64,000 nucleotides of DNA from Cenarchaeum sp. (lineage in GTDB: Archaea > Thermoproteota > Nitrososphaeria > Nitrososphaerales > Nitrosopumilaceae), in NCBI GenBank assembly GCA_965212015.1, contig OZ243037.1, positions 1,024,001 through 1,088,000 on the forward strand. The letters run 5' to 3'. The notes beneath the pieces were generated by a model. It saw nothing but the letters and a program-made list of their open reading frames with translations, ran no database searches and was not told the origin of the DNA. Shown piece after piece: positions 23,942 to 32,834 of the stretch (position 1 is its first letter; each line of letters starts with the position of its first letter). The position numbers were made by a program, and so were the translations under genes.

Positions 23942-24185
23942 GCTCAAGAGTCAGGTGCGAATGTATTTAGATGTTTTTTTACCCCCTGCGGCCATCCCGG
24001 TACGTCAAGCAGGACAATTATGTGCAAAATTAGACTCTAAATGGCTTAAAAGAGGATTGCGGGATGATCGCAATAATACATATACGGCCCACTATGATCC
24101 GATCAAATATTGATCACAGGCTAAAATTACCCCTATTTGGAGCACAGGATGGAATTGTTGTTGACCCAAGGTATGCTGTAAACCG

Positions 24186-24590
24186 ATGAGGCAATTTATG
24201 TACAAGGTGAATCATATTGATCTAGTGTCACTTCAAATTGAAACCGAATCGTCACAAAATCAGGCGATGAATCTTGCAAGCAATCATCTCAAAATAGTCC
24301 TGAATGAAACGGAATATGAATTTCCACATATGGGCGCAGCGTTTTCCGATTACGACAAGAGTGCCACGGCACGTATTCCACTGGAAACAGACATTTTTGA
24401 CTATTACCACAAAATAGACCCAAACAGGCCGATAACACGATTAGACGTACAACAGATAATCAGGAACAAATTCACCGATATAGTAAACACACGCAATCCA
24501 GGCATCCCGTCAATTAATTTCGAACATGCAGTCCGAATGCCTGTGAATATGGTCAGGACATTCGCATATGAGACCGGAGTCTGTCTTTGA
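24186..24590 (+). CDS. hypothetical protein, C-terminus probably lost at a deletion junction
   Basis: 134-aa ORF whose last ~22 codons overlap, antisense, the SWIM gene remnant. Confidence 0.5.
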   Translation: MRQFMYKVNHIDLVSLQIETESSQNQAMNLASNHLKIVLNETEYEFPHMGAAFSDYDKSATARIPLETDIFDYYHKIDPNRPITRLDVQQIIRNKFTDIVNTRNPGIPSINFEHAVRMPVNMVRTFAYETGVCL

Positions 24591-24710
24591 AATAGTATAG
24601 AATTTGTTCTGATCGGACTGTGAAACTACCTTGAATTTGCCGATGGCGATCTGAGACACGTTGTCTGGTTCCTTGAGAATCTGCCTTGCCTGTTTGATTC
24701 TTTTGTTCAT
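24510..24710 (-). pseudogene. truncated SWIM zinc-finger protein (N-terminus of a transposase-like gene)
   Basis: MNKRIKQARQIL...FKVVSQS...FYTI...ICECPDHIHRHSDC, then an abrupt end. The SWIM CxC...CxH motif lacks its last His and no DDE domain follows. Confidence 0.72.
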
Positions 24711-24712
24711 AT

Positions 24713-24785
24713 GTGATATTATCACTAGGGATATAATAATATTATTATCACTAGGGATATAATAATATTACTATCACTAGGGATC
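24713..24785. repeat. three tandem imperfect palindromes TATCACTAGGGAT(A/C), 26-bp period
   Basis: Copies at 24720-24733, 24746-24759 and 24772-24785 with near-identical AT-rich linkers; an extra inverted repeat GTGATA-T-TATCAC at 24713-24725. Confidence 0.95.
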
Positions 24786-24794
24786 GTATTAATC

Positions 24795-24801
24795 TTTATA
24801 A
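24795..24801 (+). promoter_or_regulatory. TATA box of the island operon
   Basis: TTTATAA ends 23 nt before ATG 24824, a spacing that fits a leaderless archaeal transcript. Confidence 0.65.
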
Positions 24802-24823
24802 GGGGGTAAATTGTAAATACAGT

Positions 24824-25003
24824 ATGCCAAAATGGAAGAAAGATCAAAAAATATTCAGAATTCATTTACATTATGATGATCGACGTGGCTGTATGACCAC
24901 ATTGCCAAAACCTATTTTAGATTTTTTTAAAACCCCCGATAATCTTGTAATAAAAATTACAAAATCTGGAAAAGTGAACATAATAAACGAGGATGTGGTA
25001 TAA
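24824..25003 (+). CDS. small AbrB/MazE-like DNA-binding protein (59 aa)
   Basis: Manual translation MPKWKKDQKIFRIHLHYDDRRGCMTTLPKPILDFFKTPDNLVIKITKSGKVNIINEDVV. G-x-x-T-L-P-K-x-I pattern of swapped-hairpin proteins; TAATG overlap with the MTase start. Confidence 0.78.
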   Translation: MPKWKKDQKIFRIHLHYDDRRGCMTTLPKPILDFFKTPDNLVIKITKSGKVNIINEDVV

Positions 25004-25965
25004 TGTCAAAACAGATTATGAAAACACCTTGGTTAGATACTATTGAAGAAAAGCGTGAAAATGGAGTGTATTATACAATTAACAATCCATTCAAATTATT
25101 GCCGTTTAAGAAATGGGCAAAAGAATCAAAGATTACAAAATCTAAGATCTTAGAACCATTTGCAGGAGCCAATAATATTATTACTATGTTAAAACAAGAA
25201 AAATTATGTGGTAAATTTTGCTCATATGATATAGATCCAAAAAATAAAATTGTAAAAAGAAAAAATACTATAGTTGATTTTCCCACCGGATACAAAACTT
25301 GCATTACTAATCCTCCATGGCTGACCAATTATTTTGCAAAGCGAAATAAAGTATTTTTCCCAGATACAAAACATGATAATTTATATAAAATATGTCTAGA
25401 ATTAGCATTAACAAAATGTGATAATGTGGCTTTTATAATTCCGGGTACATTTTTAAGAACTAAATTATTCAGAGAAAGACTAACATCAATTATTTTCATA
25501 AATAAAAAACTTTTTGTAGATACTGATCATCCTGTATGTATTGGACTTTTTAATAAAAATAAAGTAAATGATACTGATGTTTATTACGATAATGTTAATA
25601 TTGGAAAATTGAACAAGTTGGAAAAATATATGCCAAAACAGAATAATCATAAAATAAAAATTAAATTCAATGATCCAAATGGAAAAATTGGTCTATATGC
25701 AATAGATAATACAAAAGAGGAAACTATTAGATTTTGTAGAGGAGACGAAATTAAACGACGAGTCATATACAGTGATCGGTTAATAACTCGTATAAGTGTA
25801 GATCGCAAAATTGATATAGACATACTAAATCAACGTTTAAACATGATTAGGAAAAAAACCCATGATGTATTTTTTGCACCATTCAAAGGATTAAGAAAAG
25901 ATGGACAATATCGAAGGCGTATCGACTATGAATTTGTGAGGAATTTGATCAATGACATCTCCTGA
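25003..25965 (+). CDS. DNA amino-methyltransferase (N6-A/N4-C), gamma-class motif order
   Basis: GVYYT (motif X), ILEPFAG (motif I), YDIDP (II), ITNPPW (IV), AFIIP; very AT-rich. Confidence 0.88.
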   Translation: MSKQIMKTPWLDTIEEKRENGVYYTINNPFKLLPFKKWAKESKITKSKILEPFAGANNIITMLKQEKLCGKFCSYDIDPKNKIVKRKNTIVDFPTGYKTCITNPPWLTNYFAKRNKVFFPDTKHDNLYKICLELALTKCDNVAFIIPGTFLRTKLFRERLTSIIFINKKLFVDTDHPVCIGLFNKNKVNDTDVYYDNVNIGKLNKLEKYMPKQNNHKIKIKFNDPNGKIGLYAIDNTKEETIRFCRGDEIKRRVIYSDRLITRISVDRKIDIDILNQRLNMIRKKTHDVFFAPFKGLRKDGQYRRRIDYEFVRNLINDIS

Positions 25966-26611
25966 TTATGAACATGGCAGATTTACTCTAAAAAGACAAT
26001 TTGTTAAAGATGGCATAAATGTATCCGAAGACAAAATAAAATCATATTGTAATGAAGGTGGATATGATGAACAGGTGGTTAGAACTAAAATTAATGACGA
26101 TATAATGTTCCGATGGTTTTTTGTTAAAGATCCTATACGACAAAATTTTTATGAATTATTATTTTTGGATTTTGTTAAAGAAATAAATGGAATATCTAAT
26201 GCGGAAAAACCGTCTCCAGTGCTTCAACTTTATGAAGGTGAAATATTATCAACTGAGGAAATAAAAAAGAGAAATATTTATCCACCTTGTAAAAGCATTG
26301 ATTTTTCATGGAAATATAAAAATAATGATTTTTATGTATATCATAAATATGCTAAAGATTCTGGCGGTCATCAAGATAATCAATACCAAGATTTACAATG
26401 TTTTATAGAGGAAGCGAATAAAGTGAAAATACAAAATACGTTTTTCCTTGCTGTTGCAGATGGAGAATTTTGGAATACAATGAATGGAAAAGCTAGAATG
26501 ACTAAAATTGAAAGATTAAGAACTCTTGTAAATAATACAACTGTTTTTGCATTACAAAGTTCTGATCTAATTACGTTATTAGGAAACATAACGAACAATG
26601 AAACGACTTAA
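25952..26611 (+). CDS. putative type II restriction endonuclease
   Basis: Overlaps the MTase gene; KDP.RQN.YE, KSIDF, HKY...SGGHQDNQ and AVADGEFW suggest a variant PD-(D/E)xK core. Confidence 0.62.
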   Translation: MTSPDYEHGRFTLKRQFVKDGINVSEDKIKSYCNEGGYDEQVVRTKINDDIMFRWFFVKDPIRQNFYELLFLDFVKEINGISNAEKPSPVLQLYEGEILSTEEIKKRNIYPPCKSIDFSWKYKNNDFYVYHKYAKDSGGHQDNQYQDLQCFIEEANKVKIQNTFFLAVADGEFWNTMNGKARMTKIERLRTLVNNTTVFALQSSDLITLLGNITNNETT

Positions 26612-26864
26612 TGCAGGTTATGGGTTTAGACCTGAAAAAATAAATCCATTATGCAGTGATAAATGTCTGAAATATAAAGCAAAACAAAAGTGGGGAATGA
26701 GCCGTTATGACGACGGGCAAAAATTTTGCCCAATATGTCATGTATTCATCAGATTTAACGATTCTAAATGTCCATGTTGTAAATCTAATCTGAACACAAA
26801 AGGCAAAGATTCAAAAAACCGTATAAGAAAAAAGGCAAAAAATTCAGATAAAATTAAAGATTAA
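26598..26864 (+). CDS. small basic Zn-ribbon protein (88 aa)
   Basis: CSDKC...RYDDGQKFCPIC...FI...CPCC...L.TK; overlaps the upstream gene. Confidence 0.75.
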   Translation: MKRLNAGYGFRPEKINPLCSDKCLKYKAKQKWGMSRYDDGQKFCPICHVFIRFNDSKCPCCKSNLNTKGKDSKNRIRKKAKNSDKIKD

Positions 26865-26974
26865 TATCGTTCCTGATCAGATCGCAAAAATCCCGAGATC
26901 CATGCCTAGGCCACGTTGATTATACAGAACCGGACGCAGATAAGTTTTTATATCAAACAAGCCTAGTACTATCA

Positions 26975-27277
26975 ATGAGTGAATCAAACGATCGATACAA
27001 TAACGCAAAAAAAATCGCTGAAGAGTCGGGAACACTTCTAAAGAATGAATTCGGCTCTGACCTTGATTGGAATTCTTCTCCAAGTACTAATCTTTCATTT
27101 GTCGTAAAGAAAGACAAGAATTACGAGATTATACTAGAGTATAATGCGGCTGATGATTTGTTTTTATTGTATGATAAAAACGCTAGAGCACAAAAAGACG
27201 AGACACTTGGAACCTTCTCCCCAACTGATGCCACGCCTTCAGATATTGTCAAGGCCGTAAAAAACCACGCAGTTTGA
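26975..27277 (+). CDS. hypothetical acidic protein (100 aa)
   Basis: Clean ORF with TTTTATA about 25 nt upstream; lies within the AT-rich island. Confidence 0.7.
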   Translation: MSESNDRYNNAKKIAEESGTLLKNEFGSDLDWNSSPSTNLSFVVKKDKNYEIILEYNAADDLFLLYDKNARAQKDETLGTFSPTDATPSDIVKAVKNHAV

Positions 27278-27695
27278 AGGTTTAGCTCGTTATCATTTTT
27301 TATCAACTGCCATATTGGCCTCTGAAATGGAGGTTCAGGAATGGATCAAGGTATCTGTTCAGGTCCCTTTACACGTAATTTGCCACTTCTGAGAGGGGAA
27401 CACCCGTATTCTTCCACGACATCCGGTACTATCGTACCGATGAACGTTGTTCCCGTAATCTGTACCTCATCCGATGGTGAGTAAGTCCTGTCAGGCGGAT
27501 AGCTGTAGAACCGTACGAGGTCACCTGTCACGCCTAAAGACAACCATGACGCAAAATTCGCGCCTAGTTCCAGTAGGACGTGGCCTCATACGTAGAACCC
27601 TGCTCAAGATTTAAATGAAAATGCGCCCAACCATACCAGAATGCACGAAAAACACCACAGTCCGGGCACATGCGGGCGGTGCCCCGGGACGCGGC

Positions 27696-27812
27696 ATGGA
27701 GTTTGACATTGCCGCGTTTGCAGCATGGTGTGCCGCCGCCGGAATAATAATTGCAGTATCCGGCCTCAGCTATCGCGCATACCAAAAATCAAGGGGCGAA
27801 TCGACAGACTAG
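27696..27812 (+). CDS. small single-TM protein (38 aa)
   Basis: [38 protein letters not shown]. Confidence 0.4.
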
Positions 27813-27814
27813 GG

Positions 27815-28230
27815 CATAATGCCGCGCCGGCAAGTACGCCCCCGTCGACGTCAAGGACCGCGCCAGCTATCCGGCTTGCCTCGTCATATGCCATAAACAG
27901 AACCACGTTTGCGACATCCTGCGGCTCGCCGACCCGCCCCAGCCCCTCTATCACCTTTCGCGCGTCCGGATCCTCGAGGTACGGCTTTATCATTCGAGTT
28001 GACAATCCCGGGGCTTGTGCAGTTGCAGCGGATGTTCTGCCCGGCGTATTTGACTGCGATTGATTTTGTAGACATTGCCACGCCGGCCTTGGTTGACGAG
28101 TATGCGGCCAGGCATTCGCGGGACGGCCCTCTCGCCTGAGATGGATTCGGTGTTTATAATGACGCCGCTTTTTGCGTCGCTCATTTTTTTCAGTACCGCC
28201 CTGTCGGAAAAAACACCCACAGGATGTTGG
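27815..28230 (-). pseudogene. short-chain dehydrogenase/reductase pseudogene
   Basis: SDR motifs split over three frames: SGVIIN.ESISG / AYSSTKAG...NIRCNC.SPG / [16 protein letters not shown]...LDVDGG. The N-terminal Rossmann part is not recognisable. Confidence 0.85.
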
Positions 28231-31874: not shown

Positions 31875-32236
31875 CTGCGGATTGCAGAAAACCGGTCCGT
31901 GCGGGAATCCCTGACGGCGGTGGACAGGGATTTACAGTTGAGATATCATTGTCAGGGACAAGAACAAGGCATCGTGTTGTGATTTTATCCGTCCATGCGC
32001 GGGATTCATTTGGTGCCAAGTATGCCGGAGCACAAATCGACGTAAAGTAGCTAAAAGAAGAAGCGTGTGGCAGTGACTAATGTATGGGGGCGAACCCGAG
32101 TCCAACCGGCACGAAATTCCACCCTGTTGTATTGCGCCGTTTCTGCGGTTTGCCGGCAAGGGATTCTGCATGTTTTTGGCCAATAAATCCGCACTGGATT
32201 CCTTAAGAATAAATATAACTATCCGGATGATATCAC

Positions 32237-32419
32237 ATGAACAAAGCGGGCCAAAATATGCACAGGCGCTTTACAAAAGAACAGATTGCAGAGCAGGCAA
32301 AATTCAGGAATGACCTGAAAAATGGAAATGCAAAGTTTGCATTTTCAGGCACGTTTAAAGACGGAATTGATTTTTTAAAAGTGACTGGCAAGCTTGTGGA
32401 CGCTTTTAACCACTCTTAA
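32237..32419 (+). CDS. small hypothetical protein (60 aa)
   Basis: AT-rich ORF with AAATATAA about 20-27 nt upstream. Confidence 0.4.
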   Translation: MNKAGQNMHRRFTKEQIAEQAKFRNDLKNGNAKFAFSGTFKDGIDFLKVTGKLVDAFNHS

Positions 32420-32834
32420 GTTTCTAATCTCGTTTTGAATGCCAGACAAGTTTCTAAAATCCATGGTTTTGGAGAATGTCCCATATTCGGAGAAGCGCAG
32501 GTATTACTGGCGGGTTTAAAGATATCGAATATGACGGGGCCGTCTCAGAGCACGCCAGACCATCGCATGGATGGCAGAAGAGGTGTACGTTATATCCATC
32601 AATGAAAATGGGATACGCCAAAAGCTGAAAAATTACAGATAGGGGCCATATGGCTGCTTTTCCGGCCCCGCCTACGGGACTAGAAAACTTACCAAAAAGG
32701 CAATTTTTTATAACCATGACGTGTATCTTGTAGTTTTTTTACCGTGTAATAGTGTCAATAATATACATCCCAATCAGGCCAAACCGGAGCACCCGGGACA
32801 GCGAGGCGGCCGGGGATTCAGAAGAGTCATACTC

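Follow-up and report, generated by a model that had tools for sequence, protein, structure and literature searches.

A probable IS6-like cargo transposon remnant with a restriction–modification operon behind its own putative regulator in a Cenarchaeum genome

Positions 24527–26931 of the window, by which we mean the whole 64,000-nucleotide stretch analysed (positions 1,024,001–1,088,000 of contig OZ243037.1 in assembly GCA_965212015.1, Cenarchaeum sp.), are probably a truncated, immobile remnant of an IS6-like (ISDsp3-like) transporter insertion sequence (tIS). Its cargo, a restriction–modification (RM) operon, lies behind the transposon's own small gene, p59, whose product is a putative repressor of both promoters, that of the transposase and that of its own operon. 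This reading is built on the anatomy of the block, its terminal inverted repeat (IR), the architecture of the family to which it belongs, the IRs and target-site duplications (TSDs) of relatives, predicted folds and gene linkage, from which we infer that p59 may bind DNA and repress both promoters, that the four genes may be co-transcribed and that the RM system may be active.

In the mechanism that we propose, an intact unit would contain, between two IRs, a cargo operon headed by a small DNA-binding gene and, divergent from it across a set of operator boxes, a transposase with SWIM, zinc-finger and DDE parts, and would move as a whole, generating 8-bp TSDs. In the window the cargo would be an ordinary methyltransferase–endonuclease pair (a gamma-type N6A methyltransferase followed by a Tsp45I/BstEII-like endonuclease) plus a Zn-ribbon gene, fused behind p59 such that the p59 promoter would read all four genes as one operon. 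A p59 dimer or tetramer would bind 14-bp TATC-N6-GATA palindromes located downstream of the transposase start codon's complement on the p59 side, before the p59 TATA and on either side of the likely transposase TATA, repressing the transposase and autoregulating the p59–cargo operon. A deletion would later have taken away the second IR and all of the transposase past its SWIM motif, freezing an apparently intact RM operon in the chromosome.

A transposase fragment and a transposon end on either side of the operon

The block at approximately 24600–27200 has a GC content of 0.25–0.35, against 0.511 for the genome as a whole (1.76 Mb in one contig, with 30 low-GC stretches); a preliminary description of the window rightly called it AT-rich, while its 'GC-rich' overstated the composition of the genome. 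The parts listed there, namely a SWIM remnant, palindromic boxes, a TATA-like site and four overlapping genes, were all recovered from the list of open reading frames (ORFs) and the sequence, and a 32-nt IR is added to them here (Table 1). The genes overlap by 1 nt (p59 and methyltransferase), 14 nt (methyltransferase and endonuclease) and 14 nt (endonuclease and Zn-ribbon gene), such that the operon has no intergenic space at all and the p59 stop codon overlaps the methylase ATG.

The minus-strand ORF at the left of the block (71 aa, with a likely ATG at 24710) shares 46% identity over 63 aa with residues 4–66 of an intact 394-aa transposase encoded elsewhere in the same genome (1100958–1102142; hmmer match, residues 21–81, E 7.4e-14). 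It keeps the C-x-C...C of the SWIM motif, and homology ends before the final C-x-H, near 24522. The intact paralogue carries a DDE_Tnp_IS240 domain (35.7 bits, cut-off 27), whereas the window copy keeps the SWIM N-terminus only; no DDE part or other transposase-like sequence was found beyond this fragment in the window.

At the opposite side, the IR starts 36 nt past the last gene and is of the GGTTCTGT type, beginning GGTTCTGT when read from its outer tip at 26931, where the minus strand reads GGTTCTGTATAATC... It gives a single match in the window and none in 100 shuffles, and the genome has two further copies, inverted relative to each other, at 490181–490212 (minus strand) and 495455–495486 (plus strand). 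The same GGTTCTGT start is found in the perfect IRs of relatives. IRs of the IS6 family have been described as having a GG tip and a cTGTt motif (PMC7986276), and the one surviving window IR has both. Its position after the last gene marks the block as what is left of a truncated IS6-like (ISDsp3-like) cargo transposon. The earlier notion of a cargo-carrying transposon thus holds for the architecture, while the window copy itself is a dead remnant that has lost one end and most of its transposase.

Table 1 Features of the window block and the indel that contains it; functions are predicted.
Feature	Position	Strand	Basis
Indel relative to two same-genus genomes	23977..27837		Alignment to G401 and G415; holds the low-GC island and the transposon remnant
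IS6-like transposase gene, 5' fragment (SWIM zinc-finger part), pseudogene remnant	24510..24725	-	Homology to the intact 394-aa transposase
Operator-like palindromic boxes (three, 14 bp each) within a 26-bp tandem repeat	24717..24785		Tandem Repeats Finder (TRF), shuffles, homologous loci
TATA-like element of the p59 operon, TTTATAA	24795..24801	+	Read in the sequence; putative function
p59, small SpoVT/AbrB-fold protein, the transposon's own putative repressor	24824..25003	+	Family, AlphaFold2 (AF2) fold, transposase linkage
N6-adenine DNA methyltransferase, motif IV NPPW, Eco57I-type methylase domain family	25003..25965	+	Pfam, homologues
Type II restriction endonuclease, Tsp45I family, PD-(D/E)XK fold	25952..26611	+	Pfam, PADLOC, AF2 fold
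Zn-ribbon protein, 88 aa, small thaumarchaeal family, extra copy as cargo	26598..26864	+	Paralogues, no Pfam match
Terminal inverted repeat, cargo-side transposon end	26900..26931	+	Genome copies, relatives' IRs, shuffles

Cargo units with inverted repeats and target duplications in relatives

Transposase homologues were identified in 47 of the 401 genomes of a phylum sample and in 34 of the 56 genomes of the family, and 60 loci fetched from relatives together with two from the window's own genome make up the set of 62 considered here. AmoA of the archaeal type is encoded at one relative's locus, which identifies the relatives as ammonia-oxidising thaumarchaea. At 50 of the 62 loci a divergent ORF of 44–100 aa, called mechanically, starts within 150 bp of the transposase. 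Assigned from Pfam matches and a reading of the sequences, these small genes are of several kinds: p59-like, canonical AbrB (8/9 matching MazE_antitoxin at E ≤ 0.01), a second AbrB-like group (3/5), ribbon–helix–helix (RHH; 3/13, with weak matches), Zn-ribbon and an Arm-like 70-aa protein. The pairing of AbrB-like genes with SWIM-bearing transposases, which the preliminary description had put forward, is real.

An IR pair was detected at 14 of the 62 loci, running from just past the transposase stop codon to 0.1–3.7 kb upstream of its start, and 12 of these 14 IR-bounded units contain more than the transposase (2.2–5.3 kb). In relatives the IRs are perfect, 22–57 bp long and start GGTTCTG. Exact 8-bp direct repeats flank eight of the 14 (L038, L040, L042, L045, L072, L078, L086 and an own-genome element at 783 kb), and L043 is flanked by a repeat that matches at 7 of 8 positions. 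Passenger genes within an IR pair, which define a tIS, are thus present in relatives; in the window, the surviving IR comes after the cargo genes.

The cargo of these elements is variable and often defensive, as had been anticipated for the downstream genes. Of the ORFs in the 4.2 kb upstream, 246 have 90 aa or more, and a scan of 239 of these found RM or defence Pfam domains beside the transposase in 19 of the 60 relatives' loci, comprising type I M+S, type IIG-like, type III, CfrBI, MvaI/BcnI and HaeIII systems as well as an EcoRI-methylase with GmrSD/HNH, Mrr-ResIII and AbiV. RM genes lie inside perfect IRs at L039, L040, L042, L086, L087 and L088, with exact 8-bp TSDs at L040, L042 and L086. 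Other elements carry one to three small genes without assigned function. In four genomes (L058, L060, L063 and L066) the transposon adjoins one conserved gene string (radA, radical-SAM, L21e, Rpb4 and DUF655), either as a shared insertion site or as one old insertion that was vertically inherited.

Other loci of the same layout in the window's genome

The genome holds three loci of one layout, the window included, each with a different RM system. At 490181–495486 (L006 2182–7487), IRs enclose a degraded transposase, a divergent 70-aa Arm-like gene and a type III Mod/Res pair; the SWIM part of this transposase is homologous to the window remnant, and its Zn-finger/HTH/DDE part is internally deleted. 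At 1099045–1102142 (L005 3046–6143), the intact 394-aa transposase has SWIM, Zn-ribbon and DDE_Tnp_IS240 domains, and divergent from it are genes for a 67-aa AbrB/MazE protein (Pfam 28.6 bits, cut-off 24.7), a D12 methylase and an HNH nuclease. Four ATTACCT/AGGTAAT boxes occupy the intergenic region of this locus, and the host gene that follows overlaps the stop codon of the transposase. A further copy of the IR motif, the fourth in the genome, has diverged (5 mismatches); it lies at 1688142–1688173 (L007 3143–3174), 34 nt after a helicase-containing operon (an 848-aa SNF2-like and a 149-aa protein) in another low-GC island, facing a 648-aa ResIII-like gene.

The restriction–modification pair is a module of its own

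The window methyltransferase carries NPPW and an upstream FAGANN motif, both read in the sequence, and scores 19.9 bits against Pfam N6_Mtase, just below the cut-off of 20.4. It has at least 1565 homologues in archaea and bacteria, many with a precomputed PF07669 (Eco57I-type methylase) assignment. The 219-aa endonuclease gives weak matches to Pfam Tsp45I (E 6e-4) and to PADLOC REase_II (E 4e-4), keeps all 22 invariant columns of its family alignment (A2) and has PF06300 in 5 of its 23 homologue clusters. Its AF2 model (pLDDT 93.7) finds BstEII as the best fold match (9ibq, E 1.3e-4), followed by other PD-(D/E)XK nucleases. The pair thus has the methyltransferase motifs and the adjacent cognate endonuclease gene of a type II RM system, in the order seen in Tsp45I/BstEII-type systems, where an N6A methyltransferase is likewise followed by a PD-(D/E)XK endonuclease. 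The operon is probably functional. The Tsp45I site, GTSAC, is not avoided in the genome (observed/expected 1.10), a value that is uninformative on specificity.

The 88-aa Zn-ribbon protein (Zn88) at the end of the operon has no Pfam match, and its PADLOC matches (Cas7b and LmuB) are at chance level; comparison with NCBIfam yielded nothing useful. Paralogues with 31–38% identity occur in native-GC regions of the genome, the nearest Atlas clusters are hypothetical proteins, mostly from Nitrososphaerota, and Zn88-like matches lie downstream of p59 in L146, L150 and L153.

The endonuclease family was followed across 40 loci in bacteria of the candidate phyla radiation (CPR), Rickettsiales, spirochaetes, mycoplasmas and thaumarchaea. 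A methyltransferase homologue is adjacent at 38 of these, directly upstream and on the same strand in 36 of the 38, and no homologue of p59, Zn88 or the transposase was found at any of the 40. The RM pair is therefore an ordinary, self-sufficient and horizontally mobile module, and p59 belongs to the transposon rather than to the RM system. The view that the operon embodies a new RM control design has to be given up: what stands ahead of the captured cargo is a putative regulator of the transposon.

The arrangement does resemble that of C-protein type II RM systems such as PvuII, Esp1396I and Kpn2I, in which a small DNA-binding gene heads the operon, repeated palindromic boxes occupy the promoter and expression is autoregulated. 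In an explanation modelled on these systems, p59 would be the RM system's own controller, a C-protein analogue timing the endonuclease, and the transposase fragment an unrelated insertion scar. We regard this as very unlikely. C proteins are Xre-type HTH controllers that are co-transcribed with the endonuclease and form part of the RM system, whereas p59 has an AbrB-like predicted fold, stands ahead of the methyltransferase and not of the endonuclease, and is absent from all 40 loci of the module. Its boxes also cover the likely transposase promoter, its family accompanies the transposase with RM cargo that is varied or absent, and the IR is positioned beyond the cargo.

p59 is linked to the transposase and resembles SpoVT/AbrB proteins in predicted fold

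The proposed tie between the small gene and SWIM/DDE transposases is borne out by the best-scoring p59 loci. Thirty of these were drawn from 401 family genomes, the window being one of them and L140 and L154 coming from the unpublished genomes G574 and G556, and a SWIM–IS6-type transposase is divergently adjacent at 21, with 61–338 bp from start to start. Among the other nine, at least L139 is undecidable, having 81 bp upstream before the contig ends. The p59 profile has matches in 91 of the 401 family genomes and in 18 of 27 genera. Five or six p59 matches of identical score per genome in G444, G602 and G711 suggest recent transposition bursts of p59-bearing elements.

By sequence, p59 has no match in Pfam (E ≤ 1), NCBIfam or PADLOC, and a word-index search found no homologue; a full HMMER scan of 1.84 billion representatives did find the family, with 31 proteins at E ≤ 1e-3. 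An alignment of p59 with 28 family proteins, excluding two proteins of >2000 aa and one of 188 aa, gives the consensus MPKWKKD..EF.V.V.Y...RG....IPKPI.E.LG.P..I.F.I. Neither p59 nor its class-1 relatives (0/7) match the Pfam MazE_antitoxin/SpoVT-AbrB profile, and a PDB sequence search with the p59 profile returned nothing below E 0.24.

The AF2 model of p59 (pLDDT 80.9) has the beta-beta-alpha-beta-beta topology of SpoVT/AbrB monomers. Exhaustive structure alignment against 48,161 PDB representatives gave 12 chains at Z ≥ 2, at least eight of which are titled SpoVT, MazE, AbrB or VapB. SpoVT is the best match (Z 4.5, rmsd 2.2 over 46 residues), with MazE (Z 4.3), an archaeal 'histone-like' protein (4.2), AbrB-N (3.9) and five VapB chains among the others, values that are low in absolute terms for a domain that is small. 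Ten of the first 16 Foldseek rows are SpoVT, MazE, AbrB-N, VapB and small archaeal plasmid proteins, for three of which we take the fold to be AbrB-like. The label 'AbrB-type' in the preliminary description therefore stands by predicted fold and fails by sequence profile, and p59 is probably a divergent SpoVT/AbrB protein.

With MazE and VapB antitoxins among the best fold matches, and with MazE_antitoxin as the Pfam label of the canonical relatives, p59 could instead be an AbrB-fold antitoxin (VapB/MazE-like) that neutralises a toxic partner, and the operon an addiction module. This is hardly credible, as no PIN, MazF or other toxin gene follows p59 in the window or in the relatives scanned, the protein has no C-terminal toxin-binding tail (59 aa, with the fold occupying residues 7–59), and its constant partner is the transposase.

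Operator-like boxes over the divergent promoters

The boxes belong to a tandem repeat at 24717–24784 (26-bp unit, 2.6 copies, 97% matches, TRF score 129), each unit of which carries an imperfect 14-bp palindrome, TATCACTAGGGATA, at 24720–24733, 24746–24759 and 24772–24785; the 16-nt exact repeat of this region is reached by 0 of 300 shuffles. The TTTATAA element lies 22 nt before the p59 ATG, and in relatives similar A/T boxes are found 25–30 nt before the ATG; a transcript of the p59 operon would be leaderless or nearly so. The spacer between boxes 1 and 2 is AT-rich and lies 26–35 nt upstream of the transposase ATG, which is the distance of an archaeal TATA. The AT-rich spacers thus probably hold the transposase TATA, and occupied boxes would block it.

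Similar repeats recur across the family. In 19 of the 29 testable regions upstream of p59 genes there is a repeat, direct or inverted, that no more than 6 of 300 shuffles reach. In relatives these repeats are 14-bp TATC-N6-GATA palindromes in two to four copies, approximately 26–27 bp apart, placed in the interval from the transposase start codon to the p59 TATA; many loci have them on either side of this TATA. The core of the box varies by locus along with the residues before the conserved PKP, in strand 2 of the p59 model. For example, the core CTACGTAG is paired with RGYQSS in 12 of 12 rows (these stand for 11 places, because L053 and L148 coincide; L140 is from an unpublished genome) and CCTTAAGG with RG[CA]I[AC]I in 3 of 3, while CCACGTGG-type cores occur with Q.[YN] and the window core, CACTAGGG, with RGCMTT. 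This covariation is suggestive of recognition of the boxes by the p59 family, and from it, together with the positions of the boxes, we infer a possible co-control of transposition and cargo.

It is also conceivable, but unlikely, that p59 is an architectural or accessory transposition factor or a plain autorepressor, that the cargo uses internal promoters of its own and that the fusion to p59 has no regulatory meaning. The slot of the small gene is held by unrelated folds across elements (AbrB, RHH, Zn-ribbon and the Arm-like protein), the RM module works without p59 elsewhere, many TATA-like sites are available in the AT-rich coding sequence, and at L039 and L040 the RM cargo is opposite in orientation to the small gene, which is therefore not always the head of the cargo. 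Against this explanation, the boxes sit in the divergent promoter region and not at the IRs, and the stop codon of p59 overlaps the methylase ATG at the head of an operon with zero intergenic space.

Like the orientation of the cargo at L039 and L040, a number of other observations weigh against our reading of the block as a truncated cargo transposon under the control of p59. The window copy has one IR only, no second one being found in the window (up to 3 mismatches) or at the locus in a genome scan (up to 7 substitutions), and the indel that distinguishes this genome from G401, a genome of the same genus, exceeds the transposon remnant. No TSD was found around five of the 14 IR-bounded elements, nor in the flanks of the type III locus, despite its IRs. 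The locus with the intact transposase has no detected IR pair, and its transposase has native GC (0.50) beside cargo of 0.30 GC; not every such locus is therefore a simple insertion of a unit. As to p59, Foldseek returned nothing at E ≤ 0.001 with the model, all E-values being >0.4, and only 3 of 29 family members have weak AbrB-type matches (one to MazE_antitoxin, E 0.005, and two to PrlF_antitoxin, E 0.016). Profile–profile comparison (hhalign) with the canonical AbrB genes is likewise weak (E 0.045 and 0.012). Finally, the covariation between box cores and p59 residues could merely be joint inheritance of a gene and its neighbouring DNA.

History of the window copy and its surroundings

In G401, the bases corresponding to window 23976 and 27838 lie at L176 546 and 609, 62 bp apart, and form an empty site; in G415, also of the same genus, the gap between them is approximately 790 bp. 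The segment in between is either an insertion in the window genome or a deletion in the same-genus genomes, and no direct repeat was found at its two edges. As the indel is larger than the transposon remnant, the history of the island is composite. When 400 family genomes were searched at the DNA level, no near-identical element turned up, the matches being of 66–76% and to the RM genes only.

Contigs of run X1 break at 24528/24539. Runs X3 and X4, from another study, contain a variant of approximately 96% identity at low depth; within what contigs can show, these diverge from the window left of 24527, have one 26-bp box unit fewer and, in X3, leave the window sequence at 26932, one base past the IR tip. 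This fits a discrete element in another context with a variable number of operators.

Several further features were observed around the remnant. Two ORFs of intermediate GC, at 24186–24590 (134 aa) and 26975–27277 (100 aa), lie within the indel and outside the remnant and match no family; approximately 60 nt of the first lie antisense to the SWIM fragment. In run X1 the depth over positions 24013–24528 is roughly double that of the element, and in X3 and X4 these positions are present at high depth. The indel also contains repeat debris. A 73-bp segment (27424–27496) is 94–97% identical to part of the 3' coding region of large (971-aa) surface-protein-like paralogues, which sit at the right-hand margins of three other low-GC islands (genome 1106338, 1127967 and 1155719). 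A repeat of approximately 80 bp (27512–27593) occurs at nine further places in the genome, with 80–92% identity and on both strands, and its contig depth is very high in each of the four runs. It has the look of a miniature inverted-repeat transposable element whose ends are short and inverted, with GTAGAACC as a direct repeat on either side. At 27766–28220, a gene resembling short-chain dehydrogenases is broken up over three frames; this stretch differs in runs X3 and X4 by 4-nt and 1-nt deletions, and the window copy may therefore be a frameshifted pseudogene. A further dip in GC (0.41–0.45) lies at 32000–32800, approximately 5 kb downstream of the island.

Relation to known systems and implications

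The single ingredients all have bacterial precedents: transposons with defence cargo, repressors that act at a divergent transposase promoter, and boxes ahead of RM operons. A parallel in layout is the tnpA–res–tnpR arrangement of the Tn3 family, where a transposase and a small DNA-binding gene diverge and binding sites in the intergenic region repress both. However, TnpR is a serine recombinase that also resolves cointegrates, while p59 and the other occupants of its slot have no catalytic domain.

ISDsp3 of Dehalococcoides has been described as the only IS6-family tIS with a passenger gene (IS6 review, 2021, PMC7986276); it is 1456 bp long, with a 319-aa transposase, one passenger ORF, terminal inverted repeats of 28/36 and an 8-bp TSD (Harmer and Hall, PMC6807381). 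The family described here likewise has an IS6-type DDE transposase, long terminal inverted repeats, 8-bp TSDs around eight of the 14 IR-bounded units, and passengers. Set against the published description of ISDsp3, it differs in features that the cited accounts do not mention, namely SWIM and Zn-finger N-terminal domains of the transposase, a divergent small DNA-binding gene with operator boxes and a multi-gene cargo of up to approximately 3.5 kb that is often an RM system. In a 2019 survey of the thaumarchaeal mobilome, IS6 matches were transposase genes of approximately 1.2 kb with 53–55% identity to ISDsp3 (PMC6563490, supplementary file 4); the survey catalogued such transposases as short insertion sequences only and stated that passenger-gene transposons were undetected in archaea. 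Bacterial Tn7-like transposons also have cargo rich in defence systems (PMC8649781), but they use other transposition machinery, belong to another domain of life, are much larger and have, in the account cited, no dedicated divergent regulator. Two papers on sponge symbionts report an enrichment of RM genes and transposases and, in their passages on these genes, no more. No description of an architecture that combines a SWIM/IS6 transposase with cargo or RM genes and an AbrB-type controller was found in the open-access papers and preprints searched. The novelty lies in this combination, present in archaea on an IS6-like chassis whose regulator is exchangeable.

The window itself supports a more modest statement, that a dead transposon has left behind a probably functional type II RM operon, and the interest lies in the family behind it. 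We consider the chances evenly balanced that ammonia-oxidising Thaumarchaeota harbour a large and still active family of self-regulated IS6/ISDsp3-like SWIM cargo transposons, with an exchangeable regulator slot (AbrB, RHH, Zn-ribbon or Arm-like) whose operators co-evolve with it over the divergent promoters, a cargo slot filled preferentially by RM and defence genes, and a regulator that ties the transposase to the expression of the cargo. If so, these would be the first cargo-carrying DNA transposons described in archaea and a main vehicle of defence-gene traffic there, and would supply a mechanism behind the low-GC islands and the patchy RM and defence gene content seen in both sponge-associated and free-living ammonia oxidisers. 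They would also offer natural regulator–operator pairs of readable specificity, in which TATC-N6-GATA cores can be set against the residues before PKP, and candidate transposon tools for an archaeal group that is without genetics.

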